Source: Amphiscolops sp. MND2022
Lineage: Eukaryota
Direction: 5' to 3'
Length of the DNA stretch: 64,000 nucleotides
Assembly (NCBI GenBank): GCA_964187785.1
Contig: OZ076409.1
Span: 48,672,001-48,736,000, forward strand
The notes beneath the pieces are model-generated. The model saw nothing but the letters and a program-made list of their open reading frames with translations, had not been told where the DNA came from and did no database searches. Both the position numbers and the translations under genes were made by a program. Shown here one piece after another: positions 3,201-47,430 of this stretch. Position 1 is the first letter of the stretch. Every line of letters starts with the position of its first letter.

Positions 3201-6200
3201 AGCAGTTCTAACAATTCTGTATAACTTTTGAGATTTTCGAATGACTTTTGCACAGGGATGGCAAATTTGCGGTATTCAGCTACGGTTGCTGTGATGGACG
3301 GAAATGAATAAAAATAATTATTTTTGAACTTGTTAAAATAAAAATACCTATTCTGGAGATAACTAAAACTAAGAGCGTTTATTTCAACAAATCGTCAGCC
3401 AAATAAATTCGAAAAAAAAAACAAATCGAGCTAATTTCTAGAAATAACTTTGTCAAGTACCTTGGGCTACTGACTCAAAATATCGAAGAGTCCATTAAAA
3501 AAGCCATGTGCCACGTTTTGGCCTGATTATGGATGGCTAATTTATGCTTTTGTTGATATCCGTTCTTCGTTGAGAATAAAAATGGTTATTTCAGCGAAAA
3601 AAATGATAAAACAATTTTTTCCACCCTGAAAATGAAATAATTTATTTTAAAGCAATAAAAATATTCGAATAAAATATTGAACAGCCCTTGTTGTTGATGT
3701 TGTATTTTTTCGGCTACATTTGGACATCTAAAATGTTTTCGCTAAATCAATTCAGGGCGGAAAATACGCCATACCATCCCTGGTTCTCAATATTCAACTT
3801 TACTGATGATTAACGTTTGATTAAAATATAGGTATATCAACTTTTTTTTATTTCGGAGCTGGAAACTATTAAATTTTTCCAGCAGTTAGTTGGACTCAAA
3901 ATTATTTTTACTTTGGTGAAATAAATTCAATGTGTTGTCAGGTAACGCCCTTATGCTGAATCTGCTGGTGGCTATATTCAGCGAGATCTTCAATAAAGTT
4001 TTCGTCAGGTTAACCTTTCTTCCATAATAAAAAGTCATTAAATAACTTATAAACTGACAGTTAAGGGTTATAAAGACACCTATAAAGATTCCACTGTCTA
4101 TAAACTTACCCATCTCTCCTGTTTTTTAGCGTCAACTAAATCACGAGCTGTCCGAGTTCCATTTCATGTTTGATTTCGTAGCTTTTATGCGAAAATATCA
4201 AATTTTCATTCCGAAGATGAAATATCAGCAACCTTGTTTTCCAAAAATGGAAGGAAAAATTTTTCAATTGAGAGTTACGATCGAGACATTAATACCCCAG
4301 TCGAAACTTCAGACATTTTCTACATACTTCCAAAAATTACTTGCAAGATCATACTGTGATAATCCTCTTGTTCGGATTCTTCATTTGAAAGCTCTATTTG
4401 GTCTAAGTCTGTTTCAGTTTCAAAGAAGGGTTTAGCAGGATGTTTCAAGTCCTTCATTTTAGATGCTCTAAGAGGATAGTCGTCGTTCTCGGAATCAGAG
4501 TTTTCGTTATTGGATGCATGAACTCCTATAGATTTACTCAATTTGGATCCCGATGGTTGATTTTCTCGCATTTCATTTATATCCGACATAGGATTAGTTA
4601 CTGTGGATGCACTCTTATTAGACTTTATCTCCTTTAGAATCGCTTCAAGTTTGTTTTCCATTTCTTCTCTCATCTTTTCAATCCTATCGTTGTTCTTTTG
4701 TTCCATGATTTGGGTCCAAACTTGCATTTCATTGTTTATTTGACTAGGTTCGGTTAACTGGTTTTCAGAGCTATTTTCACCTAAATTTCCTTGGGCAACA
4801 TTACTAATATCAATTAAAGCTTCATTACCTGTTTTAGGGGTTTCTATTTGTGTTACCTCCACTTCCCTGTCTGGGGACGGTGTCTCAAGTCTTCTAGACC
4901 TTCGGCTTCTTTAATTCCCATGTTATTCTCAAGTGAAAATGTTTTCTGGCTTTTGGGGAAGAATTTGATTTAGTCTTATATCCCAAAAGAGAAGCAATGT
5001 TGGATTTTTACAGAGGCGAAATCGCAGTTTTACAGTTATTCGAGAAAGTAACTGCACTTGATGAGGATAGGATTCTTAATGAATCTCTCTGATTGAAAAC
5101 TTCGAATAAAATCCAAAAACCATGACACTCTTTTTTATGGGAGTCATCATATGAAAATCGAGACAAAAATAGAATTACGTCCAATGACGTTATATTATAA
5201 AAATAGCACAACTACATGACATCATAAAAGTATGATTGGGAAAAGAAACTAATGAACCCTGGGAGTCTCTAAAGATGGCCTTCTTTCGTAATTGAAATGG
5301 TTTCTAGATAACATTATAACACGTGCTGGATTTATTTAACAAGTCCTGCGAGAACCGTATAGTGACGAGTATGCGTCACAACTGGTTCCGCAGGATGCCG
5401 TAAAAAGTTTTTATGAAAAGCGCATAATGCCGCATACTCGTTACACCTTGAAACGTGTAATGCCGCATAATGATACTAGTAAAAACGCATAATGACGAGT
5501 ATACGTCACACCTTAATCCGCATAGTACCGCATAATTGTACTAGCTATGAAGTAGATTACTATCTGATGACGAATTTTGACGCATCAGGACCTTTAGAAT
5601 ATTTGATTAGACAATGAGATAACTCAATGCATGATCAAAACAAGGGTTCCCAATGAAGTAATGAAGGTATGTTAGCACTATGATGAAGGTCCATTCACAA
5701 TAACCATATTATAAATATCATATTTACATGACTTTCGAGACTAAACAGCATTGAGTTTTAAAGCATCATATAAGACGGGTTCATCAGGGTTTTAGCAAGT
5801 TTGTTGAAATGAGTTTATCATTCGTTCCTCTTCAAAGTTGCGCCACGGAACCATCGCATCTTGATGGATGCGACAGTCCCGCATTTTTAAAGAGGAACAG
5901 GGCTGCTTCAAATCCATGGATAAATGCTCTTGATCTAATCGCTCTTTCTTTCACTGTTTCTCCCTCGTATTCAGTTGCCATGAGGTACTCGCCCAAAGTT
6001 TCCAGCGCAATTTGATCGTAGCATTTACCACATATGTCGCAGTAACCCGCCACATTTGACATGACAGTTGGCAACAGTCTCATGCTTTGTCTCTCTCTTG
6101 CAGGGATCATTATGATATTCGTGCTGTGGGTCACATGAAAGGGAAAGCCCAACTGCACCATAGGTTGAACTGTGATCTGTTGGTTCTCAATGGGAGCTCC

Positions 6201-9200
6201 CCTCATTGGGATGGGGAAGAACGCGGGTGACAAATTAAATCCTTGCACAGTACCCAGAGGACCTTGTGACGGAGCTATATCTCTTTGAAGCTCTTGTTCC
6301 ATGGGTTCACTGAGTTGCGTGTGCTGAAAATCGGATGTCTCTGGCCTGTAGTTAGGTGGGTAAGTGGGGGTTGGCCTTGGCAATATTCCGCCTGCACTGG
6401 GGTTCACTCTTTGGATAGGGGGAACCCTGGCGGTAGGTCGACCATAATTGTTTGTTTCCTCAGGAGGGGTATTACCCAGCGTCCAGGGGAACAAATTCCC
6501 TTCTTCAAACTCGCTATCTATGAATGAACTTGGGGAAATCATCGTATCTTCTTGCGGTTCCCCTAACAACTCCATCAGGTCTTGTTCTATCTGTGTCCCT
6601 GTGGCACTTACAGACTCATTCTGTTCTGCTGTATTGGCCGGATCCACATATAACGAAGCCAATGTTGAGCCCATGAATGCTGACATCAGGTTACTCCCGG
6701 TTGTATTAATTCGAAATCTTTCGTCAAGCTGAGCGATATCTCCGGGAGCCATTGAGAAACTATTTTCTGACTCGCTCGAAATGTGCACCACATCAGGTGA
6801 TATTGGGGAGTACAGAGAATTCATATCAGAATTGAATTGGAGTTTTTCCATTTTAGATTTGTAGAGAAACCACTGAGTATTTCAGATTTTCAAGAATTTT
6901 AGAAGGCAACTGATTTATGAGATTGCAAAGACCATATGGTGATCGGTTTTCTTCTTCCTTTTGATTTTGGATGAAAACCCGCGGAAAAGTTGCTTGTCAT
7001 GTTCTGATCCTGCAGACATCCTTATAAGGATTTCGTAGGTAGTAGATTTTCGGGTTTCATTCACAACGAGTAGTAAACAATTTCCATAAACGGTGTTTCA
7101 GTTAACGCCTTTACTGATCATCACCCATCATCAAAGCTTAAAGCTTTCTTCATACGTTTAAATGATAGATAAACAAATTCTTCCTAACTTCAGAACAACT
7201 AACCAGGAAATATGTTCATGGAAATATTCATTGAAACAACTCAAAAGTGAACTCATTTATTCTTACATGACTAAGTTTACATGAAAATGAAGGATGTCAA
7301 AGTGAATGTTTCATTTCAGTTTCACATCTTTACGGAATCAAAGTTTATTTTTAAGAAAAACATAGTTTAACCCCAGTCCCGCATTTGAAAAGTGCAGCAG
7401 GGTTTGTACTAAAGCAAATAGGTTTTCATGTTTGTTGGTAATTCCAAAAAACTTGTAAAATGTACCAGCAGTCTAGACTTCTAAAAACATATCAAAATCA
7501 TAAGAGCGCCGGTCTTGTATTGGCACATTATTAATATCACACATGTCTTGCCATTAAGAGTATGTAGTTTCTTCATCATATTACATAATACTATTCCATT
7601 CATACGCTTCTAATCATTGACGACATTAATCCACTCCTTTTAAATGCATTCAGCGAAAACCGCATGATGCCGAGTACGCGTCACTACTCAATCCGCATAC
7701 TGCCGCGTACTCGTCACTGCAATTCCGCATACTGCCGCGTACTCGTCACTGCAATTCCGCATACTGCTGCGTATTCGTCTTCAGTCGATCCTCATAATGC
7801 CGTCTACTCTAGCATATAAATCATTCCAATTTGGTTCATATTAACGCATTTGCATGTATTTTCACACCCAGATCCACAATGAGCCAATCAATCACGCTGG
7901 CAGACGTAATTGATATTGAATTAGCCAATCAGATTCCAGTATTTCTTTGCACTTTTGCGCAAACTAGCATCATTTGCTCTTTGCCTTTGCCTTGTTACGC
8001 CACGCCTTTGGTACTTCATCATTTGTCAAACAGTCATATAGTTAAAATAGTACATCAGTCCAGAGTTCACAAAACATTGCAGTTCAATCTACTCCTTTTA
8101 ACCTTCACCGATTTCAGCTTTATTTTCAGCCTTTTATACTTTGTTTGTGGAGTATATATTTTATTTCTTAACCACAATCCACTATCCCCTTCTTTGCATC
8201 ATTTACGGATGGAGGGAAAACAGGAACAGAGTTTATCTGGGGAGAAAGGGACGCAAGGGGAGCAATCACCTCGTCGTTACGGTGGAGGGAGGAATTATAA
8301 TCCATCTTTCTGGTCTGATCCAGGCAAGTCCAACTTTCAATATAATTCTAGTTTGGTTGATTCAGTGAAATTTCGGTTTGTTGAGTTGGCCATACTCATA
8401 CGTGAAATAGATCCTTGTTCATCGGATCAATTTCAGATCCTTTTGAAACGTTTCCGTTTCCAATTTCTAAGTGGCTTCCGGTTTTCATACATTTCCTGTC
8501 CCCGCGTCCGGTTTCAGTCAATTTAAGCGGCTTCCACTTGCATAATTTTGTTTTGTTAACTGGATCATTTGTTTCAGTTGAACTAGAGGCCAGTGAATTA
8601 CATTCAACTCAATCCCCGGTCAAGGTTTATACACCTCTGCAAACATCCTCTCCTAAATTTCCTGTCATCTCAGAAACACTTGAATCCCCAAGTATTCCTC
8701 CGCTTCAAATCCATGAAGAAATTAGTGTGGAAACTACAATCGAGAACACCCCCGTTGATACTCCAGTGACAACCGGGGCTAATCATCAAGAATACACAAT
8801 TGAAAATAACCGCACCACTACTCTAACCAACTCTGAGCAAGAAACGACCCCCACGGGAGACATGGAGAGCTCCTATGCAAACATTAGTCGTGAGATAGTG
8901 GAAAGTTTCATGGATTCAGAAACAGCTCAGGCCTTTTCTTCACATTATAGCCAATACCTACCTCCAGGAACTGGTTCTGGGCTTGAACATGCTATGACCA
9001 ACGTTACGGAGCAAAATGTACCACCCCATAATGAGCTTCCAGAACTGTCTCCAGCTGACGGAGGCAACTTCAGTAATGTTGTGATACAAGATGCTGCTCA
9101 TAGCAGTATTAACATCACTAGGAGGGAGATCCTTGCATTAACTAGAGTCCTGGAACGTATCCCACAAGAGTATGTCCTCAATGAAGAGACTAGAGAAGGT

Positions 9201-12200
9201 CAGGCTTTGACCCTAACCATTGTAAACGATACTGAAACTGCTCCCATCGTCGCCTCATCTAGTCAAGAGGAGGTTGGACAGCCTGTTTCGTCTGACGTTT
9301 ATCCAGATGAATTACAAGGAGGACACTCAATGGGAAGAGGAAAACGTCGCAGACCAAAATATTCTTTGACTGGAGCTATGCTTAAGAAACATCCATTTCT
9401 GGGATTCTCTGCCACTGGCCCCATCGACAAAGACAAAACACCACACAAATGGTGGTGTCGGGTATGCAGGGTAGAACTTTCTCTAATGAGTAGAGGTAGC
9501 CTTGAATTACTATCTCACTACAAAACCGAGTCTCATTTAGTGAAGGAGCACCGGATGCGCATGGAGATACCCGGTATGGCCCTCTTCGACGGAGAAGGAC
9601 GGGAAATCTATGGAATTTCACTGCAAGAAGCCAAGAAAAAAGCCAAAAACAATTACCCAATCGCTCCTCGACTCGACGTATGCCGGCCCCTTGTGGGACA
9701 AGAGTCTGTCCCAGATTTCAATGCTGCTACCAACCCCACCGATAAAGTACTGTCGCAGATCTGCATACTCGAGCACGGACTTCGCCATGGTGGGCACATC
9801 AGAAGCCTTACTGGCAACTATGATGAACTGTCTCGTCTTTCCTCCAGCAGCGGGATGTGTGAACAGAATTGGAGCCCACAGCGACTTTTTGTTAGTAGTT
9901 CTTTCTCAATTGACAGTATTCATTTTCTTTCTGAACCGAATTTCCTTCATAGAAATCCCTTTAATATAAGTTTATTTACTGTGACTAAGGAACATTTTGT
10001 TTGTCTCATATGGAATTTTCGTCTACATGTTCCGAGAATTGGTTGGATATTGTGTCACTGCGATCGCTACATCTGGCCATTACTCTTTCGCTTTGCAACA
10101 TACCCCAACAGCAACGTATCTAATCCTCAACTTCTGGTCGGGGAACGTATTACAGCACGTATGCTTGGGAAGTGGACCACGGGGAATGTTGATGCCAAGG
10201 AAAACCCTGATGACAGTTTCATCATTCATCAGCCTCTTTGAGGAAGCTCCATCTTGTGTTGCCCTCATTGACTTCAGTGAAAAGTTAAGTGAATGTCTAT
10301 CAAACTGTCTCCCAGGAAAACAGCAATCTTCCATTGTCAGTTCATATGGGCCAGAAGAGTTTGAGAAGAGCCTTGCGTTACCAACTTCTCAAATCATTGA
10401 GCGCCACGACTTTCGAACGATATTAGAATTTCTCTTAATGAAGTTGAGAACGGCTTTGGACCGAGATTGGTTAAAGAAGTTACCACTACTACACAAAGTA
10501 ATTAAAATACTATATTCGTTTTACTTAAACGTCTAAGTTTCCGAGGTATGATTTTCCTTTTCTTTTAGTGTGTAGTCCGCTTGGAGTATTCTCTTCAGGA
10601 TGCATCATCGATTATAGAGGCTTTATCCAATAATTGGGATCACGTGCTTGACCACCTTAATCAAGTCGCGAGGCTTCCTGCGTATCGCTTCCATATGCGT
10701 GAGGTTATTTGCTCTCCTTTACCATGTTTCCTTTGAGACCAAAAATACGTATTTTCCTTATCTTCATGTTATCCTTTCGTTTTAGCCAAGCACTTTGGAT
10801 GAATGTTTCCGCCTCGACACGGCTTACCTAGCCCGCCTCTTCGTCATCCGCTGTGTCCTAGACCATTGTTAGTTGTTTTGTATCCATACCACCTATTGTT
10901 GTAACAGTTTCTAAGTATTATCATTCCCAAAACTCAAATTCCTCTTTGTAGCAGACTTTTCATTTCTCCGAAAATCATTGAAGCACAATTAGTATATCTT
11001 TCCTTTCACGGTATATATAATGGTGCATAACCATTCTGCTGGTTGCGAATAGTGACGCATGTTCGCTGTATCTCGTTCCACATTGCTCTGTATTGCCATT
11101 CAGCTCATTCCGCATAATGGTGTATAATCATTCAACTGATTCCGCGTAGTGACGTATAGTCGCTACACCTCGTTCCGCATAGTGACGTATAGACATATAG
11201 CTGATTCCACATAGTGACGTATAGTCGATACACCTCGTTCCGCATAGCGACGTATAGTCATCCAGCTGATCCCGCATAGTGACGTATAGTCGCTACACCT
11301 CGTTCCGCATAGTGACGTATAATCATCCAGCTGAGTCCGCATAGTGATGTATAGTCGCTATACCTCGTTCCGCATAGTGACGTATAATCCTTGATTATTC
11401 AGCTTTAATGTGTCGGTTTCCACCGTAGTAATTCCGCACGTGTTTTATGGCGCTGATGCTTTCTTCAAATCAACTCTTGTTCTTTTCGTTTTGTGAAAAT
11501 GCAGGGCTATTGTATACTTAACTTATTTGTTGTTTTAGACAACTCAGCGTTCTCTGAAGTTCAGAAGAGTGTGGATTGTGGATTTCGCGCCTTCAGTCAG
11601 TTTACCATTTTTATTTACTCCCAGCTTCAGAGTATTTTACCGGATTCCTCGCTTGGGAATATATCGGATTGGGACAATTTTTTGCAGCTTGATTTAGATC
11701 AAGCAGACTTGCCATACAGAACCCCGGACGAGTATGTTCTCAACGAAGATTTTCACAAATTAGTTACTGCGAGTAAATTGCCACGTCCCAGCAAGTTCGT
11801 TGAACAGTGTATTTGCTTTGTTAAATCTTTTTGCGGACAACTATTGGAACATGGGAACATCAAATCTAGACTCATCAGAGGACTGTCAGCATTTGATCCT
11901 GCCGTTATCCTTGTTGGACCGGAAGCCAACTACACGGACGCTATTGAAAAACTGACAAGCCATTTCGTCTCTGTTAACTTGATTACTTCAAGTGTGAAAG
12001 TAAAGGTTGTTAGTCAGTACCGATCATTAGCAGTTAAATTGCGATCCGGGGATTCTCCAGAGTACGATGATTGGATTACGTTTCTGACTTCTCACTATGA
12101 GCTTCAATGTAGACCCGAACTGTTTCAATTGTTCAAGTATTCATGTTTATGTTTGCCTCCACGTGTTGTAATGCCTCCAGAATTTATTGTTCCAATGGCC

Positions 12201-15200
12201 GATTTAGAGTCTGGTGAGGAAAACTTTCAGTCTTGCATAAAAAGTCTTCAGATGTCGTACAGCACTATTCCACATGTTTCCAGCCTGTATCGGGATCCCA
12301 AATCAGTGAGTCGGGTTTTCCGCCTCCTGGGTCGTGGAGCCGATTTATTGGCAGATAGAAAATTTTCCATCTGGAATTTCATGAGGGGGAGTGCTACCCG
12401 TAGAACATCATTGTTAGGAAAACTTGAAACTGGTTATCGCAAGGCTGTTTTGCAACACGATAGGCCAATTGTTTCGTCGACTACAACAACCCCCAGTGTC
12501 AGCAGGACTGGAAGTGTGAACAGTTCTCCTTCACCTGATCCTAGTCTGAGCAGGATTAGTGTATCGCTTAATCGCTGTTCCAGTTCCTCAGTTGAAGATA
12601 CCGGCAAGAAATCCAACTCCAAGTTTGCGAAAGGCAAGAAAAACTAAATGTGAATTGCAGTGTATAATTGATTACTGTTTTCTTTCCATACTTTGTTTTG
12701 TTTGATGTCTGTTTTTGTTACGTATTTATCTTATAACAGGCTAGTCATTACTGATAAAAAACAGGCACTCTCCCTGATATTTATTAGAAGGAAAAGGGAA
12801 AAAAAGAAGATGTTTGTCTGTGATTTGTTCTAATATCTGTATGAGTCAGAGTAGTTTGGGTTGGGATTGGGGCGTAAGTTGTATTTTTCACCACGTGTGT
12901 TTATGGGTTTTAATTGCAATGGAGTATTTTGGGAGTTTTCTGGGGTTTTTTGGGTATCATCAACTGGTGAAATACTTGGTTCTTTTTGAGTTTTTTGGGA
13001 ATTTTCATCATCATCACTGATGTGTTGTGGAATTTCATTTTCGTGATTGTCGTAATTTTGATCTGGTTCAGTGGTCTGTTCCACTGGGCTCCCCCCACCA
13101 TTTTTTGAAGATTCAGGGGAGGGCGGGTGGTTATTTTCGGGGATTTGAATCGGAGCATATTCAGCATCGTCAGTGTCCTGAGAAAACTCGGACGGCCCGT
13201 CTTCAAACGGGTTCGTTCCAAAATTTGTGTTCCATGATTGGGCGTATAGATCATCATTTGCTATAGGCGTTTGATCATCTTTTTGCCAATCAGTTTCACG
13301 AACAAAAATATCTGCCAATGGGGCTTGTGGAATAAATTTCCTGAGCTGGATCCTGTGTAGTAATGCGTTTTGTTAGTGCCAAGTCTCCGGACAATATAAT
13401 TATTGTCAGGGAGTACTTTTTCCACTTTATATGGTCCACACCATCTGAATTCTCGGAATGGTATTTTTGTCGCTTGAGTATCAGCTTTTGGGTTGAGGAT
13501 GTAACAATAGTCCGTCGTTTCGAGCGGAGCTGCTTTTGCTTTCCTATCATAGTAGGCTTTGTATTTGAGATAAGATTGCATGATGTTCTTCTTAGTTTGA
13601 TCTAGAAGGATTTTCATACGTTTTTGGATTTCTTCAGCCACATCAGTCTGTGGTTGGTATCGTGGGTTAGGGTTATATCCAAGTTTGTAGTCTAGGATAT
13701 TATGTGGTATTCTACCATGGAAAACTCGTGAAGGCTCGCAACCGAGTGATGCATGATACGTTGTATTGTGGTTTAGAACTGCCAACGGTAGATACTTATG
13801 CCAGTTATTCCTGAATTCGCCTGTTGCAGCTTTCAGGTGTGTTTTGACTGAAGCATGGGTTCTCTCAAGGAGTCCTATCGTTTGAGCATGTTTCATTGTT
13901 GCGTGTTTAAGTTCAATTCCTAGCACTGCTGCAACTTCATGCGTTATTTGCGCATTGAATTGAGTGCCTAGATCTGTGATTATCGTTGTAGGAAGGTAAG
14001 TGTGTTTGCATAGTATGTCCATGATAACTCTTGACACCGTTGTTGCATTGATGCGAGTTACAGGGTAAGCAAACAAATATTTTGAGAAGACATCTATCGC
14101 CGTGATGATATGGTCATAGCCTCCGCTTGGGGGGAGGTTTGGCAAAATATCCATTTGCAGAATGTCCTCTGGCCCAAGATCCCATTCTGGGCAGTTTAAG
14201 AGTTCAGTTCTGAGAAGATCATTGTTAATGCGTTTTGTTTGGATACACACTTGGCAGTTACTGACCCCTTTTTTGATGTATTTAGCCATACATGGGTAGT
14301 AGTATTTTTGTCGGGCTTCTTGAATCATCTTGGTGATTCCTGGGTGGTTTGAATTGTGACCATGTAGGGCTTGAAGAAATTCTTCTAGCAGTTGGATCGG
14401 TAAGAGAATTTGGTAATGAGATATGGTTCCTGTGTCAGTGTAGTATTTTCGTGTAAGGACTTCCTGTTTTATTTTTATTCGGGTTATATTTTGTAAGTAG
14501 TGTTGGTATCTATAATCGGACGCCAATTCGTTTTCATCAAATGGGTTTCCTTCAAGTTTTGCTCTCAGATTTCTAAGGACGATGTCAATGTTCTGCTCGA
14601 GGCGAATTCTTGCATTATCCTTAAAGTATCCTGATGAGATTGAGATCAACCCCGATGTGGATTTATGAAATTGTTGTAGTTCAGAGACGTCAGTTTCTGG
14701 TTCATTGTGTGTTTCTGTTTGAGCTTGGTCTCGAATATTTTGTTTCTCTTCCCAAAGTTGATTTTCATCAATTTCATCTTCGGGTAGAATGTAAATTTGC
14801 TCTTCGTCTACAATTCCGGTTGATTGGATATTCACCTCAATAGCTTTGGTGTGAATGTCATTGCGGATTGTCATTTCTAGTTTTTCAGTTGGGTCAACTT
14901 CTGTTCTAGATAAGAAGTCAGCTGCTGTGTTCATTGATCCAGCAACATGAGCAATTACGAAATTATATTGTAAGACGTAATCGCACGCATTCCAGAGTGC
15001 TGGTGGAATCATTTTTGCTTGAAAAAAGCGAGTTACTGATCGATTGTCAGTGAAGACTATGACTGGGAAGGTACTTCCCCACATGAGGTGTCCAAACTCT
15101 AAAAATGCGAAATATATGGAAAGGAATTCTTTCGCATATATTGACATTTTAGTTTGTGTTGGATTAAAAGTTTTTGAACCAAATGCAATGGGTGCATACG

Positions 15201-18200
15201 TTTTTCGTTTAGATTGAAGTTTTTGGTTCGGGTCGTCTTCGATCATGATAGCATATCCTGCTGCTGTGAAACTTGCGTCGGACATGACTATAAGTTGTTT
15301 ATTTTTCAGTGGTTGTTTTAATGCTAACTGGCAGGAATTCTCCAGAAGTTTGTTGAGGTTGGTGAAGGCTTCTAGCAAGTTTGTGGGTACGTAGAATTTG
15401 GAGGTTTCTCTGAGGAGTTTGAAGAACGGAGAAAGTCGTTCTGAAAGGCGTGGTATGTAGTTTCGATAATAATTTAAAAATCCAATATACCTTTGTAACG
15501 CCTTCTTTGACTTGGGGAATCGGAGTTTTGATAGAAAATCTGTGACTTTGTCCGCTTGTGGGGCGACTCCGTCTGGTGTTATTGTACGCCCTAGGAAGTC
15601 AACTTGTTTGACTCCAAAGTGACATTTTGACATGGAGAGTTTTAGTCCTGCATTGCGAATGCATTCAAAGAGAGTTTTGATATTTATGCAGAGTTGTTTT
15701 GTGTCGTTTGCCGCTATGCCAATGTCATCGACATATTGGGCACATTGGTCAGCTTTAATTGCTCGATCTAGGTACTCTCTCATAAAGCTTGAAAATGCAG
15801 AAAGTGATCTAGAGAGGCCTTGAGCAAGACGACGATAGGCAAATGTTCTACTGGCAAAATTAAAGGCTAGCATTTGGATGGATTGGTAATCGGCCATCTT
15901 GAGGCAGTGATAAGCCTGTGAGCAATCCACCTTGCAGAACAGTTCCTTTCCTGCCATATGTTGTGCTGCATCTGATAAAGTGCTTACCGGGTGATTGTTA
16001 TTGGTGTAATCTTCAGTGATGAGGTTGTTAATCTTTCTGAGGTCTACTAAAAGTCTAAGACGTCCGTTGGGTTTGCGCTGTGCAAAAATTGGGCTGGCGT
16101 ATTTGGAAAAAAGTAAAGTTGTAATGATACCGTACTTGTGTAGAAGTGCGAGTTCTACTGTGATATCATCCTTGAGATTGATAGGAGTTGGCAGACTTTG
16201 GCTGTAAGCAGGTCTGTCATCATTCGGTGTTAATTTCACTTTGAATTCGCGGTTTATTCCTATATCGAAACGATGTCTGGCAAAGATGTCGTGAAATTCG
16301 ATGAGGATTTCCTCAATTTCTTGTCGTTCGGCTGGGCCGAGTGTTGTATCAGACCAGTCGAAGTTTGAAAGAAATGTTGTTCTTGAGGAATCGTTATCAT
16401 TTGGGTTTAGTTTCTCGAGTTCTTGTAGTTCAAGAAGCTCTTGATAGATGCGTTGCTGAATTGGGGTATATGTTGCAGGGTCGCCTGGTTCATCAGGAGT
16501 AGGGAACCAGTAGGTCTCCTGTTCGGGATTTTGTTGTGGTACTTTAAGAAGTTCATTTATGTGGACTTCTGTTGTTTCTTCGTGTTGAATCATAAACGAT
16601 AACAATGCAGGGTCCACTGGTTGTATATGTTTGATTTGTTCTGGTGTTAAAATCTTGAAATCTGCTAAATGGGTGTCCATTGTAATGGTGTATGGTAATT
16701 CAGAGAAGTTGATGATTTGATAGCCGATAGCATTGTTGTTGACAGTACTGAGCGATGCAGTGATGAAAATGCTATCGTGATTTTCATATTGTTGCGATGG
16801 GGTGACTATGCCGGTGGCATTATGATCCATCAAATGGGGCAATCTGCTTGCGATGGCGAGTGTTTCGCCTGGTTGTAAGGTGTAGGTATTTTCAGCAAAT
16901 AATGGTGTTGCTTGCCTTATTGATGTTTGTGTTTCTGGTTTAAGTTGCATTGATAGATAGGGGAAGGTTAGGATACCCTGTGTAACATCGAAAATTGCGT
17001 TATTTCTCCGGAGGAAACACAATCCGATTAGTGGGTTCGGTAGATTTTTCATGATGATGAGGTTTTCTTTTAACATGAAGTCAGCCACTTCAAATTCTAG
17101 TAGTACCGTACCGATGGGGACTTCTAGTTGTCCATTTGCCACCATAATTTGGAAGTTCGGTGGGGGACCGGTTTCTTTTATTGCCTCATTGGCGAGCAAT
17201 TTGATTTTGTTGAGGTCTTGTTCTGAGATTGCACTTGTGAGAGCTCCAGTATCAATGAGACCATCAAGCGTGAGTTTTTCGAAGTCCATCGGAATGTAGT
17301 ACATGTGGCGTTTTCGCTTCAGTGTTAAAGAGGTTGAAATTGGGAGATATGATAAGTTTCGTTCCTTATCAAATTGTATATGTTCTGTGAGGTCTTCATT
17401 TAGAAGAGGTTGTTTCTCATTATTGCAATAAGTTTTTATTGTTACGTGGTGTTTTGTTTTGTGTTGGGTTTCTGAGTTTGGGTCGGTTTCGGGGTTGTTA
17501 GATTGTTGAGGAAAGTAGTTGTCTGGTGCATCGTGTAAGAGTTCGTATAAGTCTTCAGGTTGAGTTTCCAGAGTTAGTTGTTGTATTTTTTCTGTTATTG
17601 AGTCGGTTTCACAGGCTGATGTTTTTGTAGGTTTTGGGCTCAACTGATGCTGCCAGTCATCAATTGAGTTTGGTTTATGTGGTGGTTTTGTGTAAAGGCG
17701 TGGCGTTTCTAGTTTAAATCCTTTGACGAGGATTGTTGATGTTCCAGTTTTGGTTTAATAGGTTTTTTGGCTTGTTTGTAGTCTTCAATGACTTTTTTCT
17801 GGGCTTCTGTAAGGTTCCATTTGGTTGGACGATTTTCCATATTGGCTCCGAAGTAGCAGTTTTCTTCGTCATGTCCTGGGGTATTGCAATTTTGACATTT
17901 TTCGGATTCCGGATCGTCCTCGAGTTTGCGCCGTTTAGCTAATTTGGGACAGTCAGTCATCATGTGGCCTGTCTCCTTGCAGTAACGGCATTGGTCGTTT
18001 TTGAGGGTTTTATCTGGTACTGTGTTTGGGGTTTGTTTTTTGGTTTTGTCAGTTTGTTTTTTGTTGATTTTTTCAGTATTTTGTTCCTTTTTAGTAACGG
18101 TCATTTGAGTTTTGACGAGAGTGTCGTCTGCTTCTAGGCCGTTAAGTTCCATTTCTCTTTCAAGGTGTTTGACAATTTGATCGTAAGTGCCATTCTCAAG

Positions 18201-21200
18201 ATAAGCTTGGTTAATGGACTTTTTGAGGTGGGGAGGCATTTTGGCATAGAGTAGGTTCTCTATCATTTGGTGGGCATTGTCCCCGAACGCTTTTTCAGCA
18301 CTTTCTTGGAGTTCTTCTAAGAAGTCCGGAAGTTTTTGGTTTTCTGGGTCGAAAAAGAGTCTGTTGAATCTATGTTTAGCAGATGCACTGGACTCTGGTT
18401 TCACATATTTTCGGCGAAAGACTTTTAAAATGTCTTCCAGCGTCGTGGTGGGAGTTCTTTGTATGTTTTTGAAGGTTTTAAGTGCCAAACCTCTGAGATG
18501 GGCGTGGAAATGGTTAATTTTCATTTCCTCTGTTAAGTTTGGTTGCATTCGTAATGTTGTATGGAACAAGTCCTCAAAATATTCGAATTTCTCGTTTTTC
18601 TCATTTTTCCCATTGAAGGTGAGTGTATTTTTGGGGTGAAAAAGTGATTGGGGAGAGTTTTTGTTGGCCAATTTCTCGATTGCAAGAGCAATTTGATTAA
18701 CTGGATCAAGTGGTTGTGTTATTGAGTTCGTTGTATTTTGGACTGCATGGGATCCAATTGTATCATTTAGCTTTTGTGAGCTCTGTCTATGGAGTTGTCG
18801 GTTGGCTCCTGTCACCATGTGATAATCCTCTTGTTCGGATTCTTCATTTGAAAGCTCTATTTGGTCTAAGTCTGTTTCAGTTTCAAAGAAGGGTTTAGCA
18901 GGATGTTTCAAGTCCTTCATTTTAGATGCTCTAAGAGGATAGTCGTCGTTCTCGGAATCAGAGTTTTCGTTATTGGATGCATGAACTCCTATAGATTTAC
19001 TCAATTTGGATCCCGATGGTTGATTTTCTCGCATTTCATTTATATCCGACCTAGGATTAGTTACTGTGGATGCACTCTTATTAGACTTTATCTCCTTTAG
19101 AATCGCTCCAAGTTTGTTTTCCATTTCTTCTCTCATCTTTTCAATCCTATCGTTGTTCTTTTGTTCCATGATTTGGGTCCAAACTTGCATTTCATTGTTT
19201 ATTTGACTAGGTTCGGTTAACTGGTTTTCAGAGCTATTTTCACCTAAATTTCCTTGGGCAACATTACTAATATCAATTAAAGCTTCATTACCTGTTTTAG
19301 GGGTTTCTATTTGTGTTACCTCCACTTCCCTGTCTGGGGACGGTGTCTCAAGTCTTCTAGACCTTCGGCTTCTTTTATTTCCCATGTTATTCTCAAGTGA
19401 AAATGTTTTCTGGCTTTTGGGGAAGAATTTGAATTAGTCTTATATCCCAAAAGAGAAGCAATGTTGGATTTTTACAGAGGCGAAATCGCAGTTTTACAGT
19501 TATTCGAGAAAGTAACTGCACTTGATGAGGATAGGATTCTTAATGAACCTCTCTGATTGAAAACTTCGAATAAAATCCAAAAACCATGACACTCCTTTTT
19601 ATGGGAGTCATCATATGAAAATCGAGACAAAAATAGAATTACGTCCAATGACGTTATATTATAAAAATAGCACAACTACATGACATCATAAAAGTATGAT
19701 TGGGAAAAGAAACTAATGAACCCTGGGAGTCTCTAAAGATGGCCTTCTTTCGTAATTGAAATGGTTTCTAGATAACATTATAACACGTGCTGGATTTATT
19801 TAACAAGTCCTGCGAGAACCGTATAGTGACGAGTATGCGTCACAACTGGTTCCGCAGGATGCCGTATAAAGTTTTTATGAAAAGCGCATAATGCCGCATA
19901 CTCGTTACACCTTGAAACGTGTAATGCCGCATAATGATACTAGTAAAAACGCATAATGACGAGTATACGTCACACCTTATTCCGCATAGTACCGCATAAT
20001 TGTACTAGCTATGAAGTAGATTACTATCTGATGACGAATTTTGACGCATCAGGACCTTTAGAATATTTGATTAGACAATGAGATAACTCAATGCATGATC
20101 AAAACAAGGGTTCCCAATGAAGTAATGAAGGTATGTTAGCACTATGATGAAGGTCCATTCACAATAACCATATTATAAACATCATATTTACATGACTTTC
20201 GAGACTAAACAGCATTGAGTTTTAAAGCATCATATAAGACGGGTTCATCAGGGTTTTAGCAAGTTTGTTGAAATGAGTTTATCTTTCGTTCCTCTTCAAA
20301 GTTGCGCCACGGAACCATCGCATCTTGATGGATGCGACACATACATATCTTGTAAGATATTTTGGACAAATTTTAGCAGACCACACGAAAACTACAAAGA
20401 TCTCACACGATCAGACAGAAAGTACCAAGATCTGGCAAGTCACTTGGCAGAATAATGCATTAAAATTCAAGATCTTGTTCAAAGAGTCTGTGAGTTTATG
20501 TAACGTCCACCTAGCAGAGTACATCATAGAAGTGGGTGCCTAGGGTGCTTAAACAGGAGACCGTTGTCTTACTACAGCCCTAGACATTAGTTCTTAATCC
20601 CGAAATGGTCTCCTAAAAGGAACTTTTTCAAACGTCAAAGGAGGCTCCTCAGTTAGAGCTCCGTGGCGACGTGCCGGCGCACTCAAAGTCCGGACACGTC
20701 CCACAAGCCTGTAAAAACGTATCCTAACGTTTCTGCGACTCTACATACCTCCGAGGTCCGAAAACAGGGGTTTAGCTAAAGTACATTTTAATTAGGAGAA
20801 TAACGTCTAAAATAACAAAAAAAGGGGTTAAAAACACCAAACATCTGCAAAGACCATAAATACGGTACAACAGACAGAGGAAACATCAGGCGTCAGTGTC
20901 AGCTAGTCTTTGACCTGCTAGGTGGCACATGCAAAATAGGCAAACTTCTGAGTTTCTTCATCTTTTGGGTCATTCTTCGGGTTCTGCTGGTAGTTGGGAC
21001 GTCTTCCGAGGGAGATGGCACCACACGGCGTTTTCGGGGATACTTCTATGGCGGGGTGTTCTCTCTCAGGCTGGGTGGGGGTGTTTTTTTGTGCGTTTTT
21101 TTGCTTCTTTTATGATTTTCGGTACCTGCCGGATCGGCCATTTTGAATCACACATTTCGAATTTTTCAACGAAATTTTGTAATTTTCGTTCGGCGACTGC

Positions 21201-21859
21201 TGGACGTTACATTATTAATATTTGCGTTAGAGGTTTGAACTGGGATATGCATTTCAGAGGGCAATATGCAAAAAAGTGGAGACTGTTTTTCAATAAGCTT
21301 AAGTGAAACCAATTGGTACTTTTCAGGCTAGTTTTGGCCGTATTGGTCGCATTTCAAATATCTAATCAAGTATTTGACTTCGACCCTATCTCCAAAACTT
21401 CATAGCGTAAAATCTTGTTTAAACATTAATGATTATTTCAGATCCGACTCTGAGTTCAAAAACGAAATGTTGATGCTCACGAAAGAATACGAGAATAAAA
21501 CTATTCTACCGGCACCCTTTGTAATGTTCGAAATACTCTACAAGTTAATCCGTTTCCTCTGGAACCGATCACAGTGTAATCAACATCAGGGTGGAAAATC
21601 AGATGATGGGAAAAACGACTCCAGTTGTACTACAAGTGAGAGAAATGTAATCTGCCATTTCGAGAATAAATGCTCTAAAGAAATGTTATCCGAATTGGAT
21701 GGGTTGCTTTCGCCTGAAGAAGAAGTCCAACATGCTCTCGAATCAATCGACGCTCAGCAAAGCAAGTTGGCCGATATGAATTTGCTGGTTCAAGAAATTG
21801 ATCGACTTCTAATGGAACGATTCCACAATGAACGCATTCGGAAATACGCATGTATATAA
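206..21859 (+). CDS. Host TRPM-like cation channel, 3' part. Inferred exons: 206-420, 1651-2018, 2272-2469, 2765-2945, 3942-4008, 21442-21859; a further exon near 943-1115 is uncertain.
   Basis: Motifs occur in TRPM order: AKEFICHIGFQACVEEFW (pre-S1), FYMTPVVKFLIHLLSFLIFL (S1), WMRLLAFYRCSRRLGILWILIRKMM (S4-S5), LRPFFMFSGE (pore), NALMLNLLVAIFSEIF (S6), then EYENKTILPAPF and a C-terminal coiled coil. Intron phases match at 2018/2272, 2469/2765, 2945/3942 (needs a weak GC donor) and 4008/21442. Confidence 0.85.
3253..3782. mobile_element. Possible hAT-type MITE in a TRPM intron
   Basis: Short inverted ends CAGGGATGG ... CCATCCCTG; no clear TSD found. Confidence 0.35.
4355..5875 (-). repeat. 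3' LTR of element 1 (1521 bp)
   Basis: Matches 18818-20339 with roughly ten substitutions and one 1-bp indel counted by eye. It contains a frameshifted copy of the gag 5' end (ORF 4320-4862). Confidence 0.97.
5832..6851 (-). CDS. Accessory ORF-X of element 1 (339 aa): disordered N-terminus, conserved C-terminal CxxC domain; function unknown
   Basis: Open ATG-initiated ORF. Its C-terminal ~70 aa (GYCDICGKCYDQ...RAFIHG...CDG) align with ORF 60592-61353 of element 2. The last 44 nt lie inside the 3' LTR. Confidence 0.8.
   Translation of the reverse strand: MEKLQFNSDMNSLYSPISPDVVHISSESENSFSMAPGDIAQLDERFRINTTGSNLMSAFMGSTLASLYVDPANTAEQNESVSATGTQIEQDLMELLGEPQEDTMISPSSFIDSEFEEGNLFPWTLGNTPPEETNNYGRPTARVPPIQRVNPSAGGILPRPTPTYPPNYRPETSDFQHTQLSEPMEQELQRDIAPSQGPLGTVQGFNLSPAFFPIPMRGAPIENQQITVQPMVQLGFPFHVTHSTNIIMIPARERQSMRLLPTVMSNVAGYCDICGKCYDQIALETLGEYLMATEYEGETVKERAIRSRAFIHGFEAALFLFKNAGLSHPSRCDGSVAQL
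7659..7806. repeat. CpG-rich tandem array (~33-bp unit TTCCGCATACTGCCGCGTACTCGTCACTGCAA)
   Basis: About 4-5 imperfect copies visible directly, between the divergent accessory genes. Confidence 0.85.
8209..12647 (+). CDS. Antisense spliced accessory gene of element 1, roughly 1,100 aa: low-complexity N-terminus, BED-like C2H2 finger, degenerate hAT-transposase-like body
   Basis: Phase-consistent GT-AG introns 10498-10568, 10704-10785 and 10868-11538; probable GC-AG intron 8324-8577; an intron from donor 9891 to about 9990 whose acceptor phase does not resolve. Motifs: WWCRVCRVELSLMSRGSLELLSHYKTESH, LSAFDP, RPELFQLFKYSCLCLPP. Confidence 0.75.
11043..11388. repeat. CpG-rich tandem array of alternating 33/32-bp units (core TTCCGCATAGTGACGTATAG)
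   Basis: About 11 units visible. Spacers alternate between TCGCTACACCTCG and TCATCCAGCTGA types. It lies in intron 10868-11538 of the antisense gene. Confidence 0.9.
12830..17718 (-). CDS. pol: Pol polyprotein (protease, RT, RNase H, integrase), with one frameshift near 13363 in the integrase C-terminus
   Basis: LIDTGA (PR); YVDD (RT); SDAS/KEFL/TDNR (RH); H-x5-H...CQVC, QMDI/TDLG/LLER and WCGPY (IN). Adding one base near 13363 restores KTxLLHRIQLRKF and joins ORF 13318-12830. Confidence 0.95.
17709..19385 (-). CDS. gag: Gag (558 aa) with two CCHC zinc knuckles; start codon lies inside the 5' LTR
   Basis: CRYCKETGHMMTDC and CQNCNTPGHDEENC knuckles; capsid-like FHAHLRGLALKTF region; immediately upstream of pol. 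Confidence 0.93.
   Translation of the reverse strand: MGNKRSRRSRRLETPSPDREVEVTQIETPKTGNEALIDISNVAQGNLGENSSENQLTEPSQINNEMQVWTQIMEQKNNDRIEKMREEMENKLGAILKEIKSNKSASTVTNPRSDINEMRENQPSGSKLSKSIGVHASNNENSDSENDDYPLRASKMKDLKHPAKPFFETETDLDQIELSNEESEQEDYHMVTGANRQLHRQSSQKLNDTIGSHAVQNTTNSITQPLDPVNQIALAIEKLANKNSPQSLFHPKNTLTFNGKNEKNEKFEYFEDLFHTTLRMQPNLTEEMKINHFHAHLRGLALKTFKNIQRTPTTTLEDILKVFRRKYVKPESSASAKHRFNRLFFDPENQKLPDFLEELQESAEKAFGDNAHQMIENLLYAKMPPHLKKSINQAYLENGTYDQIVKHLEREMELNGLEADDTLVKTQMTVTKKEQNTEKINKKQTDKTKKQTPNTVPDKTLKNDQCRYCKETGHMMTDCPKLAKRRKLEDDPESEKCQNCNTPGHDEENCYFGANMENRPTKWNLTEAQKKVIEDYKQAKKPIKPKLEHQQSSSKDLN
17712..17718 (-). promoter_or_regulatory. -1 programmed ribosomal frameshift slippery site U UUA AAC
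   Basis: The minus strand reads GAT TTA AAC TAG at the gag stop. The -1 frame is open from here into pol (LETPRLYTKPPHKPNSIDDWQHQLSP). Confidence 0.85.
18800..18817 (-). promoter_or_regulatory. Primer binding site (TGGTGACAGGAGCCAACC)
   Basis: TGG directly follows the 5' LTR terminal CA. The first 7 nt fit a tRNA ending ...GUCACCA (e.g. tRNA-Trp), but primer identity is unresolved. Confidence 0.7.
18818..20339 (-). repeat. 5' LTR of element 1 (1522 bp)
   Basis: Direct repeat of 4355-5875, adjacent to the PBS and to TSD CATAC. Confidence 0.97.
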
Positions 21860-31500: not shown

Positions 31501-33422
31501 CCTTTTAAAACATTTCAATCCAAGAAGATTGTCGAAACTTTGACAAAAATTGCGTAAAAACTTTGAAAATTGAAAAATTTTAGGGTTTTTGTCAATTTCG
31601 GTGTCAATTTGAGACGTTGTCACTTGAACAACTGTAATTAACTCCTCCAAACAGCCTATTGGACAACAAATTTTTTCATTGTTGAGCCTTTTCAACGTTC
31701 CAATCTATAAAATCCATTGAAATTTTGGAAAAAAAACTGCATAAAATCTCTGGAAATTCGAAAATTTCGAGATTTTTGTCATTTCGGTGTCAATTTGAGA
31801 CATTTTCATTCAAAACATTGCAACTATTTCTTTATTAAAGACTACTGGACAACGAATTGTTTCTTTGTTGACCCTTTAAAACATTTCAATCGAAGAAGAT
31901 TGTCGATACTCCAATAAAAAATGCGTGAAAACTTTGAAAACTGGAAATTTTGGGGTTTTTGTCATTTTCGTTGACAATTTAAGACATTTTCAAAACGAAA
32001 ACTGCAATAAACTCTTCAAAAAAGCCTACTGGACAACAGATTCTTTCCTTGTTGACTTTATTCAACGTTCCAATCCATAAAGTCTGTCAAGAATTTGGAA
32101 AAAAATGCATAAAATCTTTGAAATTTAGAAAATGGTTGGGTTTCTGTGATTTTCGGTGTCAATTTGAGAATTTTTCATAGAAAAACAGCAATTAGCTCTT
32201 CAGAGAAGCCTACTAGACAACGAAATGTTTCTCTTTGACCCTTTAAAACATTTCAATCCAAGAAGACTGTTGAAACCTTAACAAAAAATGCATAAAAACT
32301 TTGAAAATTGGAAAACTTTGGGTTTTTTGTCATTTTCGGTGTCAATTTGAGACATTGTCACTTGAAAAACTGTAAATAACACCTCAGAAAAACCAACTGG
32401 ACAACACATTTTTTCATTGTTGAGCCTTTTCAACGTTCCAATCTATAAAATTCATTGAAATTTTGGAAAAAACTGCATAAAATATTTGGAAATTCTTAAA
32501 TTTTGAGATTTTTGTCGTTTTTGGTGTCAATTTGAGACACTTTCATTCAGAACATTGCAACTATCTCTTCATTAAAGACTACTGGACAACGAATTGTTTC
32601 TTTGTTGACCCTTCAAAACATTTCAATCTAAGAAGAATGTCGAAACTTTAACAAAAATTGCGTAAAAATTTTGAAAATTGAAAAATTTTGGGGTTTTTGT
32701 CAATCTCGGTGTCAATTTGAGACGTTGTCACTTGAACAACTGTAATTAACTCGTCTAAAAAGTCTACTGGACAACACATTTTTTCATTGTTGAGCCTTTT
32801 CAACGTTCCAATCTATAAAATTCATTGAAATTTTGGAAAAAACTGCATAAAATATTTGGAAATTCTTAAATTTTGAGATTTTTGTCATTTTTGGTGTCAA
32901 TTTGAGACACTTTCATTCAGAACATTGCAACTATCTCTTCATTAAAGACTACTGGACAACGAATTGTTTCTTTGTTGACCCTTTAAAACATTTCAATCCA
33001 AGAAGATTGTCGAGACTTTAACAAAAATTGCGTAAAAACTTTAAAAATTGAAAAATTTTGGGGCTTTTGTCAATTTCGGTGTCAATTTGAGACGTTGTCA
33101 CTTGAACAACTGTAATTAACTCCTCTAAAAAGTCTACTGGACAACACATTTGTTCATTGTTGAGCCTTTTCAACGTTCCAATCTATAAAATCCATTGAAC
33201 TTTTGAAAAAAAAACTGCATAAAATCTCTGGAAATTCGAAAATTTCGAGATATTTGTCATTTCGGTGTCAATTTGAGTCATTTTCATTCAAAACATTGCA
33301 ATTATCTCTTTATCAAAGACTACTGGACAACGAATTGTTTCTTTGTTGACCCTTTAAAACATTTCAATCGAAGAAGATTGTCGATACTCCAATAAAAAAT
33401 GCGTGAAAACTTTGAAAACTGG
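28536..33422. repeat. Satellite array, ~185-bp monomers (about 26), with four monomer variants
   Basis: The anchor CTACT(G/A)GACAAC...GTTGACCCTTT recurs every ~183-187 bp. Confidence 0.95.
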
Positions 33423-36050: not shown

Positions 36051-36323
36051 TCCCTCCATATTAATTCAGCAAAGAGCACGTCTTGTTCCGCTTTCCAATG
36101 GTACAAAAATCCCACATTGAAGGTATCAACACCGCTGTAACATCCTTGTTGATGAGAGGAACTCTTGAATGAAAACTTCCATTAAAAGTTTATACTGGTC
36201 CGATTAACTGTTTAAACTGATTGATTACGCAAAAATAGTGTGAAGAATGTTTGTATCTCAAATTGAGATTCTCAATTCCAAACTCTCACTTTGAAAAAAA
36301 TTAAATTGATGGTTTCTAGTTTG

Positions 36324-42825: not shown

Positions 42826-45236
<2,411 letters not shown>

Positions 45237-45725: not shown

Positions 45726-45884
45726 CCTATGTTACAATGTAAGTTTTTCGAAATTTCTTTTACCTTCGAATAATTTTCTACGGACAGGTTTCTTACCCAA
45801 ACCAATCTCAATGACGATAATTCAATTGAATTCCTCCAAATGAGATGTAAACTATTTCATGAATAATTGTCGCAACATGACAAT

Positions 45885-47420: not shown

Positions 47421-47430
47421 TAGCAAATTA

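Follow-up and report, generated by a model that had tools for sequence, protein, structure and literature searches.

We consider it somewhat probable, from sequence and structural comparison, that a captured and disarmed DNA transposase serves a Ty3/Gypsy LTR retrotransposon as its sequence-specific regulator, through predicted binding of the element's own tandem repeat arrays. The window, that is, the whole stretch of 64,000 nucleotides analysed here, contains this 16-kb retrotransposon (element 1, 4355–20339) and part of a second one (element 2). The predicted regulator of the retrotransposon promoters is most likely an activator. More tentatively, an invertebrate LTR retrotransposon lineage may have domesticated a DNA transposase, with finger and cis motif co-evolving in each family to give private circuits of activation or anti-silencing.

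Overall architecture of element 1

The LTR pair of element 1 (1521/1522 bp) is 99.3% identical, with 10 substitutions and one indel, and the element is flanked by a 5-bp target duplication, CATAC, at 4350–4354 and 20340–20344. A PBS-like site starting with TGG lies directly after the 5′ LTR, within the gag frame, and a purine-rich tract (PPT) precedes the 3′ LTR. Pfam locates the protease at 162–250 of pol, RT at 560–725, RNase H at 795–927 and integrase at 1119–1285. The retroelement parts are as follows.

4355–5875, minus strand: 3′ LTR, 1521 bp with TG...CA ends, including a copy of gag codons 1 to ~190
5832–6851, minus strand: ORFx, an accessory ORF on the sense strand (339 aa), terminating within the LTR
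12830–13372, minus strand: tail of pol in a different frame
13261–17754, minus strand: pol (protease-RT-RNase H-integrase), by Pfam
17709–19385, minus strand: gag, Ty3 capsid-like with a CCHC knuckle (Pfam Ty3_capsid and zf-CCHC)
18818–20339, minus strand: 5′ LTR

ORFx has an acidic N-terminal half, a P/Q-rich middle and a single CxxC close to its end. It shares 35% identity across 71 aa with an ORF of element 2 (60592–61404); no Pfam match and no evident DNA-binding domain are found in it. Rfam and tRNA scans gave no match.

The antisense finger gene and its likely hAT origin

Antisense to the retroelement runs a gene for which we predict five exons.

8562–9890, plus strand: finger exon, 5′ boundary uncertain
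10012–10497, plus strand: exon 2, predicted RNase H-type β1–β3, the first strand without Asp
10569–10703, plus strand: predicted exon 3, AG/GT ends, open and in phase, resembling P0314
10786–10867, plus strand: predicted exon 4, AG/GT ends, phase 1 matching exon 5, resembling P0314
10868–11538, plus strand: predicted intron 4, containing array 3
11539–12647, plus strand: exon 5, a helical region aligning with Hermes residues 365–609, and a basic C-terminal tail

The acceptor preceding exon 2 is non-canonical in the element 1 copy. The finger exon encodes, in order, an acidic S/T/P-rich arm, a basic KRRR stretch, the finger (C-x2-C-x16-H-x5-H, at about 9456–9536) and helices. The arm is disordered, with 15% D+E and 4% K+R. 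The family of this exon comprises 75 clusters with 771 member sequences, and the finger is its best-conserved part: residues 38–78 are 81% identical, compared with 58% downstream (74 relatives), and the four finger ligands are kept in 72–73 of 73–74 relatives. Loci of relatives were confirmed in none of the viral contigs (62 pattern hits), metagenome contigs (133; 594 with P0384) or prokaryote genome contigs (14) that were searched.

The encoded protein likely derives from a hAT transposase and has lost the catalytic acids, as sequence and structural models suggest. In the Atlas, the look-alikes of the finger are zf-C2H2_12/zf-BED proteins (0.92–0.94) and those of the N-terminal half are RNase-like proteins of the DUF4371/FAM200-ZBED5 type (0.90–0.92). 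Hermes transposase ranks first for the N-terminal half in Foldseek (E 0.047, weak and above 0.001) and second for the C-terminal half in VIA (Z 5.0, rmsd 6.1, 181 residues, also weak), where its alignment is the longest among the 50 matches listed; taken singly, each of these structural scores is weak (no Pfam hit, Foldseek E >0.001, Z 5). Foldseek returned nothing at E<=0.001 for the C-terminal half. No informative Pfam family was obtained for the accessory gene among the window ORFs and relatives, none of 65 members matched BED in Pfam, and PDB sequence searches with the accessory protein gave only chance matches. The best VIA matches of the finger are TUT4/TUT1-type fingers (Z 4–5) from RNA-binding proteins. 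A homodimer prediction for residues 112–180 was uninformative, at 0.02.

When catalytic positions are assigned by analogy, which did not locate the second Asp, Asp is missing from the first strand in three subfamilies, and Glu occupies the expected C-terminal position in at most 15 of 68 members; in exon 5 of element 1 the conserved catalytic Glu is absent. The accessory protein thus lacks the catalytic DDE triad of an active hAT transposon. Among the 25 longest of 88 inverted pairs, none with >85% complementarity brackets the finger gene. A nested intact hAT transposon was also considered and rejected: catalytic acids are absent and the layout is common to element 2.

Three related repeat arrays in element 1

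The first-pass annotation had described tandem arrays sharing a core and facing one way, and both observations are borne out. Allowing at most one mismatch, CCGCATANTGMCG has 21 matches in the window, all within element 1 and all on the plus strand, against a chance mean of 0.13 and maximum of 2 (100 shuffles); element 2 and the remaining 43 kb have none. They lie where that annotation had located them, with four in each LTR (5355–5530 and 19819–19994), five in the spacer between the divergent genes (7660–7802) and eight in the intron (11142–11382), the last placement depending on the predicted exon model. Six of the 21 are exact, none of them in the LTRs. The units measure 32 or 33 bp, a narrower range than the ~32–35 bp first given.

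5355–5550, plus strand: array 1 in the 3′ LTR, 6 units of 33/32 bp
7660–7822, plus strand: array 2, 5 units in the spacer of the divergent gene pair, with two CCAAT boxes (7884, 7925) just downstream
11045–11402, plus strand: array 3 in predicted intron 4 of the finger gene, 11 units, the first two degenerate; the most regular 65-bp dimer
19819–20014, plus strand: array 1 copy in the 5′ LTR, ~325–520 nt into the LTR and ahead of the gag ATG

The copy in the 5′ LTR likely lies in U3. A gag-like reading frame extends into the LTR, and the LTR array is outside that frame. TRF detects the spacer and intron arrays and misses the more degenerate LTR array. Autocorrelation peaks at lag 65 in all three arrays (0.66, 0.48, tied with lag 32, and 0.75), and lags of 10 and 32/33 are among the top eight in every element 1 array. 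Pairwise alignments of the arrays span whole units, with local scores of 79, 101 and 76 that none of 200 shuffles reached. Because the 65-bp dimer is common to all, the three arrays probably have one ancestor. Identity between arrays is 0.78 in box 1, 0.59 in box 2 and 0.34 in the linker, core conservation being somewhat inflated by anchoring the units on the core, and the 32/33 spacing is retained. An inverted repeat, TGMCG-N6-CGTCA, occurs at seven sites (11 matches over both strands). In the intron array units its second half-site is never perfect, and the conserved array columns reach past TGACG. The CCGCAT of the core recurs in the PPT and in a PPT-like copy inside the element.

The array sequences had no match in Rfam, their translations were not found among the proteins searched, and the exact 18-base array pattern was found in none of the viral or genome contigs searched. 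Outside its array, the LTR shows no alignment with the spacer.

The first-pass annotation had further suggested that the element's own finger protein recognizes the arrays, for anti-silencing or autoregulation. Self-recognition gains indirect support from the hAT-like dead protein and from the element-specific second motif, in a family with a different finger, described below. Anti-silencing by way of methylation gains none: the CpG o/e of the window is 0.87, none of the 10 LTR substitutions of element 1 is a CpG transition, and codon-junction CpG in the element 1 genes is 0.66–0.76 compared with 0.49–0.89 for GpC. From these figures CpG methylation appears to have left little trace in the window, which weakens a methylation-erasing version of the proposal.

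Element 2: a motif of its own, and a different finger in its relatives

No tandem array is present in element 2 (best autocorrelation 0.39), as had been noticed before; a dispersed motif of its own had been overlooked. CACCRT-N4-GAC-N5-GTC, a pattern derived from four of its own sites, is found seven times in element 2 and in neither element 1 nor the rest of the window (chance 0.23).

59045–60626, minus strand: putative 3′ LTR of element 2, boundaries by analogy with element 1; five motif copies (59191, 59248, 60099, 60169, 60445)
61633–61655, plus strand: motif copy in the spacer between the divergent genes
62385–64000, plus strand: 5′ part of the antisense gene; this copy is spread over several frames and is truncated by the window end upstream of the finger

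The seventh copy, at 63233 in the antisense gene, is weak. A matrix built from the four sites ranks three more element 2 sites next (30.1, 21.3 and 12.4 bits), followed by a best score of 8.7 bits. Two of the seven sites fall within gag-like coding sequence and there specify a repeated peptide. Four sites are on the minus and three on the plus strand, and occurrence in both orientations is as expected of a DNA site. Non-coding DNA of element 2 does not align clearly with that of element 1 (best 10/200 shuffles).

Since its own finger is beyond the window, the finger of element 2 is deduced from relatives. Among the closest is P0397, 80% identical across the searched arm region. The P0397 relatives have a homologous finger exon with the same intron position at its end (hhalign 97.9%, E 4e-13, 21% identity), and their finger sequence differs from that of element 1. 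The motif change accompanies a finger change, in a DNA-level comparison that covers two families. The absence of arrays from element 2, which had been named as a possible refutation, now points the other way: its family has a homologous gene with a different finger, and element 2 has a separate motif.

Discussion

In the mechanism we propose, an ancestral Gypsy element would have acquired a hAT gene in antisense, a placement in which reverse transcription of the minus-strand genome would leave the introns intact. Catalysis would then have been lost and the finger retained. The finger may read paired half-sites, that is, two 10-bp boxes about three helical turns apart, which in element 1 would be the TGMCG-N6-CGTCA inverted repeat and in element 2 GAC-N5-GTC. 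Its places of action would be the LTR and, in its own gene, the promoter and an intron, the acidic disordered arm opening chromatin or recruiting the transcription machinery, and the outcome would be a feedback loop specific to one family.

The arrays could instead be enhancers or insulators for host transcription factors, such as bZIP proteins on TGACG half-sites, with some different role for the hAT-derived protein. The sequence TGACG is known as a half-site of bZIP factors, and LTR elements commonly amplify host-factor sites, for example the su(Hw) sites in Drosophila gypsy. The CCAAT boxes adjoining the arrays and the seven inverted repeats fit such factors, and the two families could have changed host factor independently of the finger. 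We nevertheless regard this as unlikely, given that the core is absent from the other 43 kb of the window, that motif and finger change together, that conserved columns continue beyond TGACG and that the intron units have no perfect second half-site. Less likely again are arrays that arose by template switching and local amplification with no sequence-specific reader, or that act as RNA in packaging, dimerisation or splicing. Copying alone would explain the likeness of arrays that are homologous over whole units with a common 65-bp dimer. The single orientation of every element 1 copy, the CCGCAT in the PPT and its internal counterpart, the resemblance of the finger to RNA-binding types and the somewhat better folding of the spacer array than of shuffles (z −2.26) point the same way. 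Against this, the conservation of the core columns does not extend to the linkers, the other two arrays show no folding advantage over shuffles (z −0.92 and −1.21), no array matches Rfam, and the element 2 sites are dispersed in both orientations.

Binding by the element's own protein might also repress or limit the element, through copy-number control or LTR competition, or tether the integration complex. All the evidence for self-binding applies equally here, and sites in its own intron and promoter fit negative feedback; we still judge it improbable, since the acidic, low-basic disordered arm resembles an activation region and the transposase-derived regulators described in the available text of bioRxiv 10.64898/2026.08.24.746577 activate cognate copies. 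A reader other than the finger protein, namely ORFx, is very improbable. It is kept in both families and has a CxxC and an acidic/PQ-rich body, but this CxxC is its only one, and the protein is acidic, without a Pfam match or an evident DNA-binding domain.

A finger protein acting as activator through its own sites would matter in several respects. In the literature consulted, plant DNA transposons are established as encoding sequence-specific regulators of their own, and for plant Gypsy elements the origin and function of antisense genes and tandem arrays are described as unknown. Element 1 offers candidate sites, a traceable origin (likely a dead hAT transposase) and, together with element 2, two natural finger–motif pairs; swapping these pairs would test directly for a transcription factor encoded by the retrotransposon that it serves. 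The large finger gene family would make co-evolution mappable in the host genome. If true, the circuit could have contributed to the growth of the lineage to hundreds of copies.

Comparison with known systems

The predicted domain order of the protein, with an N-terminal finger, helices, RNase H-type strands and a helical C-terminal half, resembles that of hAT transposases (Hermes; the Buster/Charlie-type ZBED5, FAM200 and GTF2IRD2), as far as these are covered in the sources available. The gene here differs in that catalytic acids are absent, no terminal inverted repeats bracket it among the longest inverted pairs listed, and it travels inside LTRs. In Hermes, BED domains cooperatively bind a quasi-palindromic pair of subterminal repeats, according to the accessible part of PMC10368747. 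Burro, the planarian giant Gypsy (PMC6431247), is likewise a large invertebrate element with captured extra domains and tandem repeats. Its cargo is mostly in the sense polyprotein, of apoptosis and ubiquitin type, and the portion of that paper available to us does not mention a transposase-derived regulator.

A similar layout is found in the plant Gypsy elements Retand/Tat and Grande. The accessible text of PMC11963269 and PMC7264820 describes a long region from pol to the 3′ LTR, an antisense gene predicted to encode a DNA-binding protein, an internal promoter, and tandem arrays that are specific to each family and have no known function; it reports that the antisense ORFs resemble no other TEs. 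Element 1, like Retand/Tat with aORF-3R, has an antisense ORF and tandem arrays in the interval from pol to the 3′ LTR. Unlike aORF-3R, no window ORF or relative matches TRP28/Transposase_28 in Pfam; the gene here points to hAT and has introns, and the array motif is also in the LTR. In the literature searched, with subscription journals and repeat databases mostly outside it, no LTR retrotransposon with a hAT-derived regulator is reported.

TnpA of Spm evolved from a transposase, and the available text of bioRxiv 10.64898/2026.08.24.746577 presents it as a regulator formed by loss of catalysis and acting on cognate motifs, as we propose here. In that account regulators of this type remain in the DNA transposon or move to the host, whereas ours is inside a class I element; 'LTR' has 0 occurrences in the main text of that preprint. 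For the VANDAL/VANC anti-silencing system of Arabidopsis, the accessible part of PMC5735166 places VANC motifs within tandem repeats, the VANC21 intron among the locations. Motif binding by the accessory protein, loss of DNA methylation and reactivation in trans are hallmarks of that system. There the carrier is a Mutator-like DNA transposon (MULE); here it is a Gypsy LTR retrotransposon, likely of an invertebrate, the protein resembles a dead hAT transposase, its binding is a prediction, and any loss of methylation would be hypothetical. Element 1 likewise has arrays, and element 2 has a different motif that is dispersed rather than tandem, in a comparison of two families. If the proposed circuit is real, it would represent the transfer of a regulatory system from class II to class I elements and an animal counterpart of VANC and TnpA.

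Repeat arrays and their carrier

Screening of the whole window with the core CCGCATANTGMCG at one mismatch or fewer gives 21 matches against a chance expectation of 0.13, six of them exact. All lie on the plus strand, in four clusters, which are listed below with the accessory genes.

Arrays and accessory genes of element 1 (array coordinates are those of the core matches)
5355-5530 and 19819-19994, plus strand, array 1, in the LTRs, likely in the U3 region
7660-7802, plus strand, array 2, directly upstream of two CCAAT boxes
11142-11382, plus strand, array 3, in intron 4 of the finger gene
5832-6851, minus strand, ORFx, an accessory ORF
to 9890; 10012-10497; 10569-10703; 10786-10867; 11539-12647, plus strand, five inferred exons of the finger gene, with compatible phases

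The related, same-orientation arrays with one shared core described in the first-pass annotation are thus confirmed, and their description can be refined. Consecutive in-register units of 32 or 33 bp number 6, 5 and 11 in arrays 1, 2 and 3, each unit being a pair of related 10-bp boxes plus a linker of 12-13 bp. Between arrays, identity is 0.78 for box 1, 0.59 for box 2 and 0.34 for the linker, with the two most degenerate intron units excluded and the values somewhat inflated by core anchoring. Many units include the inverted repeat TGMCG-N6-CGTCA, which occurs exactly at 7 sites, all outside the intron array. All three arrays show an autocorrelation peak at lag 65 and align with one another far above 200 shuffles, and therefore descend from a single 65-bp dimer. 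Right after array 3, positions 11419-11445 resemble the left half of the element 2 motif (see below), without its GAC-N5-GTC.

The carrier, element 1 (4355-20339, minus strand), is an ordinary Ty3/Gypsy element in a host that is probably an invertebrate. Its LTRs of 1521 and 1522 bp are 99.3% identical and end in TG...CA, with the target duplication CATAC. The pol domains follow the order PR-RT-RH-IN, and the pol tail runs on in a different frame. Unusually, gag starts within the LTR, so that a PBS-like site falls inside the gag frame. The LTR reaches into gag coding sequence at 4355-4920 and 18818-19385, and likewise at 59045-59600 in element 2, a related element entering the window at its right edge.

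The two divergent accessory genes are located between pol and the 3' LTR. Exon ends of the finger gene are GT/AG except for the intron 1 acceptor, which is non-canonical in this copy; the introns would survive retrotransposition since the gene runs antisense to the genomic RNA. ORFx, which has a homolog at 60592-61404 (minus strand) in element 2, is acidic, rich in P and Q, and carries a CxxC domain towards its C terminus; it has no family match and could be a co-activator. About 500 bp upstream of ORFx, positions 7365-7400 are a near-copy of the PPT region (5865-5900) and share CCGCAT with the array core; this copy is possibly a central PPT.

Relatives and origin of the finger protein

Among proteins of at least 316 aa, the finger exon retrieves 75 clusters that together hold 771 sequences; the last exon retrieves 111 clusters. 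Clustering at 50% leaves 208 representatives, a large share of which are fragments. None of the relatives examined carries a functional name. They were compared as protein sequences, and some distant ones sit on short contigs from other sources. One of them, the predicted protein P0053, matches gag over its first 199 residues (67%) and also the finger exon, which suggests a rearranged copy elsewhere.

The finger itself, C-x2-C-x16-H-x5-H, is the best-conserved part (81% vs 58% downstream in 74 relatives) and is preceded by an acidic S/T/P-rich arm and a basic KRRR stretch. Pfam names no family for the protein. In Atlas, the finger falls with zf-C2H2_12/zf-BED clusters and the N-terminal half with DUF4371/FAM200-ZBED5 clusters. 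For the N-half (model pLDDT 61), Foldseek ranks Hermes transposase first, at E 0.047, and the C-half model (pLDDT 78) aligns with Hermes residues 365-609 at rank 2 (Z 5.0, rmsd 6.1, 181 residues). These four lines, weak individually, all point to a likely origin from a hAT transposase. Foldseek returned no match for the C-half model at E<=0.001, and the best VIA matches of the finger are TUT4/TUT1-type fingers (Z 4-5), which counts against a hAT origin. In three subfamilies, strand 1 of the predicted RNase H fold lacks an Asp, and no conserved Glu was found near the expected third catalytic position; the protein is therefore read as catalytically dead.

A second element with a different motif, and a different finger in its relatives

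Element 2 has the same layout: an inferred LTR at 59045-60626, the ORFx homolog and, on the plus strand, a gene truncated at the edge of the window. Five closest relatives of this gene were found; one of them, P0397, shares 80% identity across the stretch searched. These relatives continue into a homologous finger exon with the same intron position at its end (hhalign 97.9%, 21% identity), and their finger clearly differs from that of element 1.

The first-pass annotation had seen no clear arrays in element 2. Autocorrelation indeed detects no tandem array, and the element 1 core is absent from the part inside the window, but element 2 has a motif of its own. Across 26 comparisons, local alignment of its non-coding parts reveals a recurring motif, at modest pairwise scores (1, 2 and 8 of 200 shuffles). 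The pattern CACCRT-N4-GAC-N5-GTC, built from four of these sites, has seven matches in the window, all in element 2 (chance 0.23). A matrix from the same four sites ranks the three others next, at 30.1, 21.3 and 12.4 bits, the following site scoring 8.7. The LTR holds five of the sites and the spacer one; the remaining site, a weak one, is in the gene. Four sites are on the minus strand and three on the plus strand. Two overlap gag-like coding sequence, where they may represent a repeat at the peptide level. Both motifs are built on an inverted GAC...GTC, with a spacing of 8 bases in element 1 and 5 in element 2. With each motif confined, in the window, to its own element, there is one own motif per family. 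The motif difference thus appears to accompany the finger difference, which is the strongest support for self-recognition, at n=2.

Possible role of the arrays

We lean towards a mechanism in which paired half-sites would be recognised by the disarmed transposase in three places: the LTR, the promoter of its own gene and the intron of that gene. This binding would activate the promoters of the element or keep them open. Cooperative binding of Hermes BED domains to a quasi-palindromic repeat pair is described in PMC10368747. In bioRxiv 10.64898/2026.08.24.746577, transposases are described as able to switch on cognate copies and as a source of regulators that have lost catalysis. The self-recognition system proposed earlier is upheld in part and extended, through a finger-motif pairing that differs between two families (n=2). 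Its anti-silencing function is not: CpG o/e is 1.55-1.73 in the arrays vs 0.87 in the window, codon-junction CpG is just mildly low, and CpG transitions account for 0 of 10 LTR substitutions, a value that LTR protection could also yield. A methylation-erasing version of the mechanism thus finds no support in the sequence.

That the arrays serve as sites for host factors seems unlikely to us. Neutral copying or an RNA role is less probable still, even with one of the three arrays folding better than shuffles. We give little credence to the finger protein acting instead as a repressor or a tether, and ORFx as the reader of the arrays is hardly credible.

Other features of the window

Env-like frames at 57209-59044 (minus strand), broken into pieces, match a Monjiviricetes-type fusion glycoprotein (PF24664, E 3e-20). 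The element 2 LTR appears inserted into this gene, which therefore likely belongs to a third element. ORFs at 50039-52642 (plus strand), with a weak BRCT match, end at an N gap (52643-52842) and are possibly a further transposon-type gene. The ORF at 21332-21859 (plus strand) has no Pfam match; it resembles the C terminus of a TRP-type channel and may be a host exon, lying some 1 kb from the element 1 insertion. Two satellites with periods of 185/370 bp occupy 28536-33418 (26 monomers) and 45933-47433 (about 8 monomers), and short-period arrays lie at 45478-45734 (28 bp) and 47430-47579 (16 bp), with a (CTA)75 run at 45010-45233. Long near-perfect inverted repeats or palindromes, MITE- or foldback-like, are found at 36270-36896, 37002-37104, 37673-37777, 43836-44004 and 47744-47916.

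Comparison with known systems

Our literature search, of incomplete coverage and restricted to sources other than repeat databases, found no report of an LTR retrotransposon with a hAT-derived regulator. Plant Retand elements have a parallel layout with antisense ORFs and arrays, whose origin and function are given as unknown (PMC11963269; PMC7264820); unlike them, element 1 lacks TRP28. In its presumed working, element 1 would resemble VANDAL/VANC and Spm/TnpA, although it is a member of neither.
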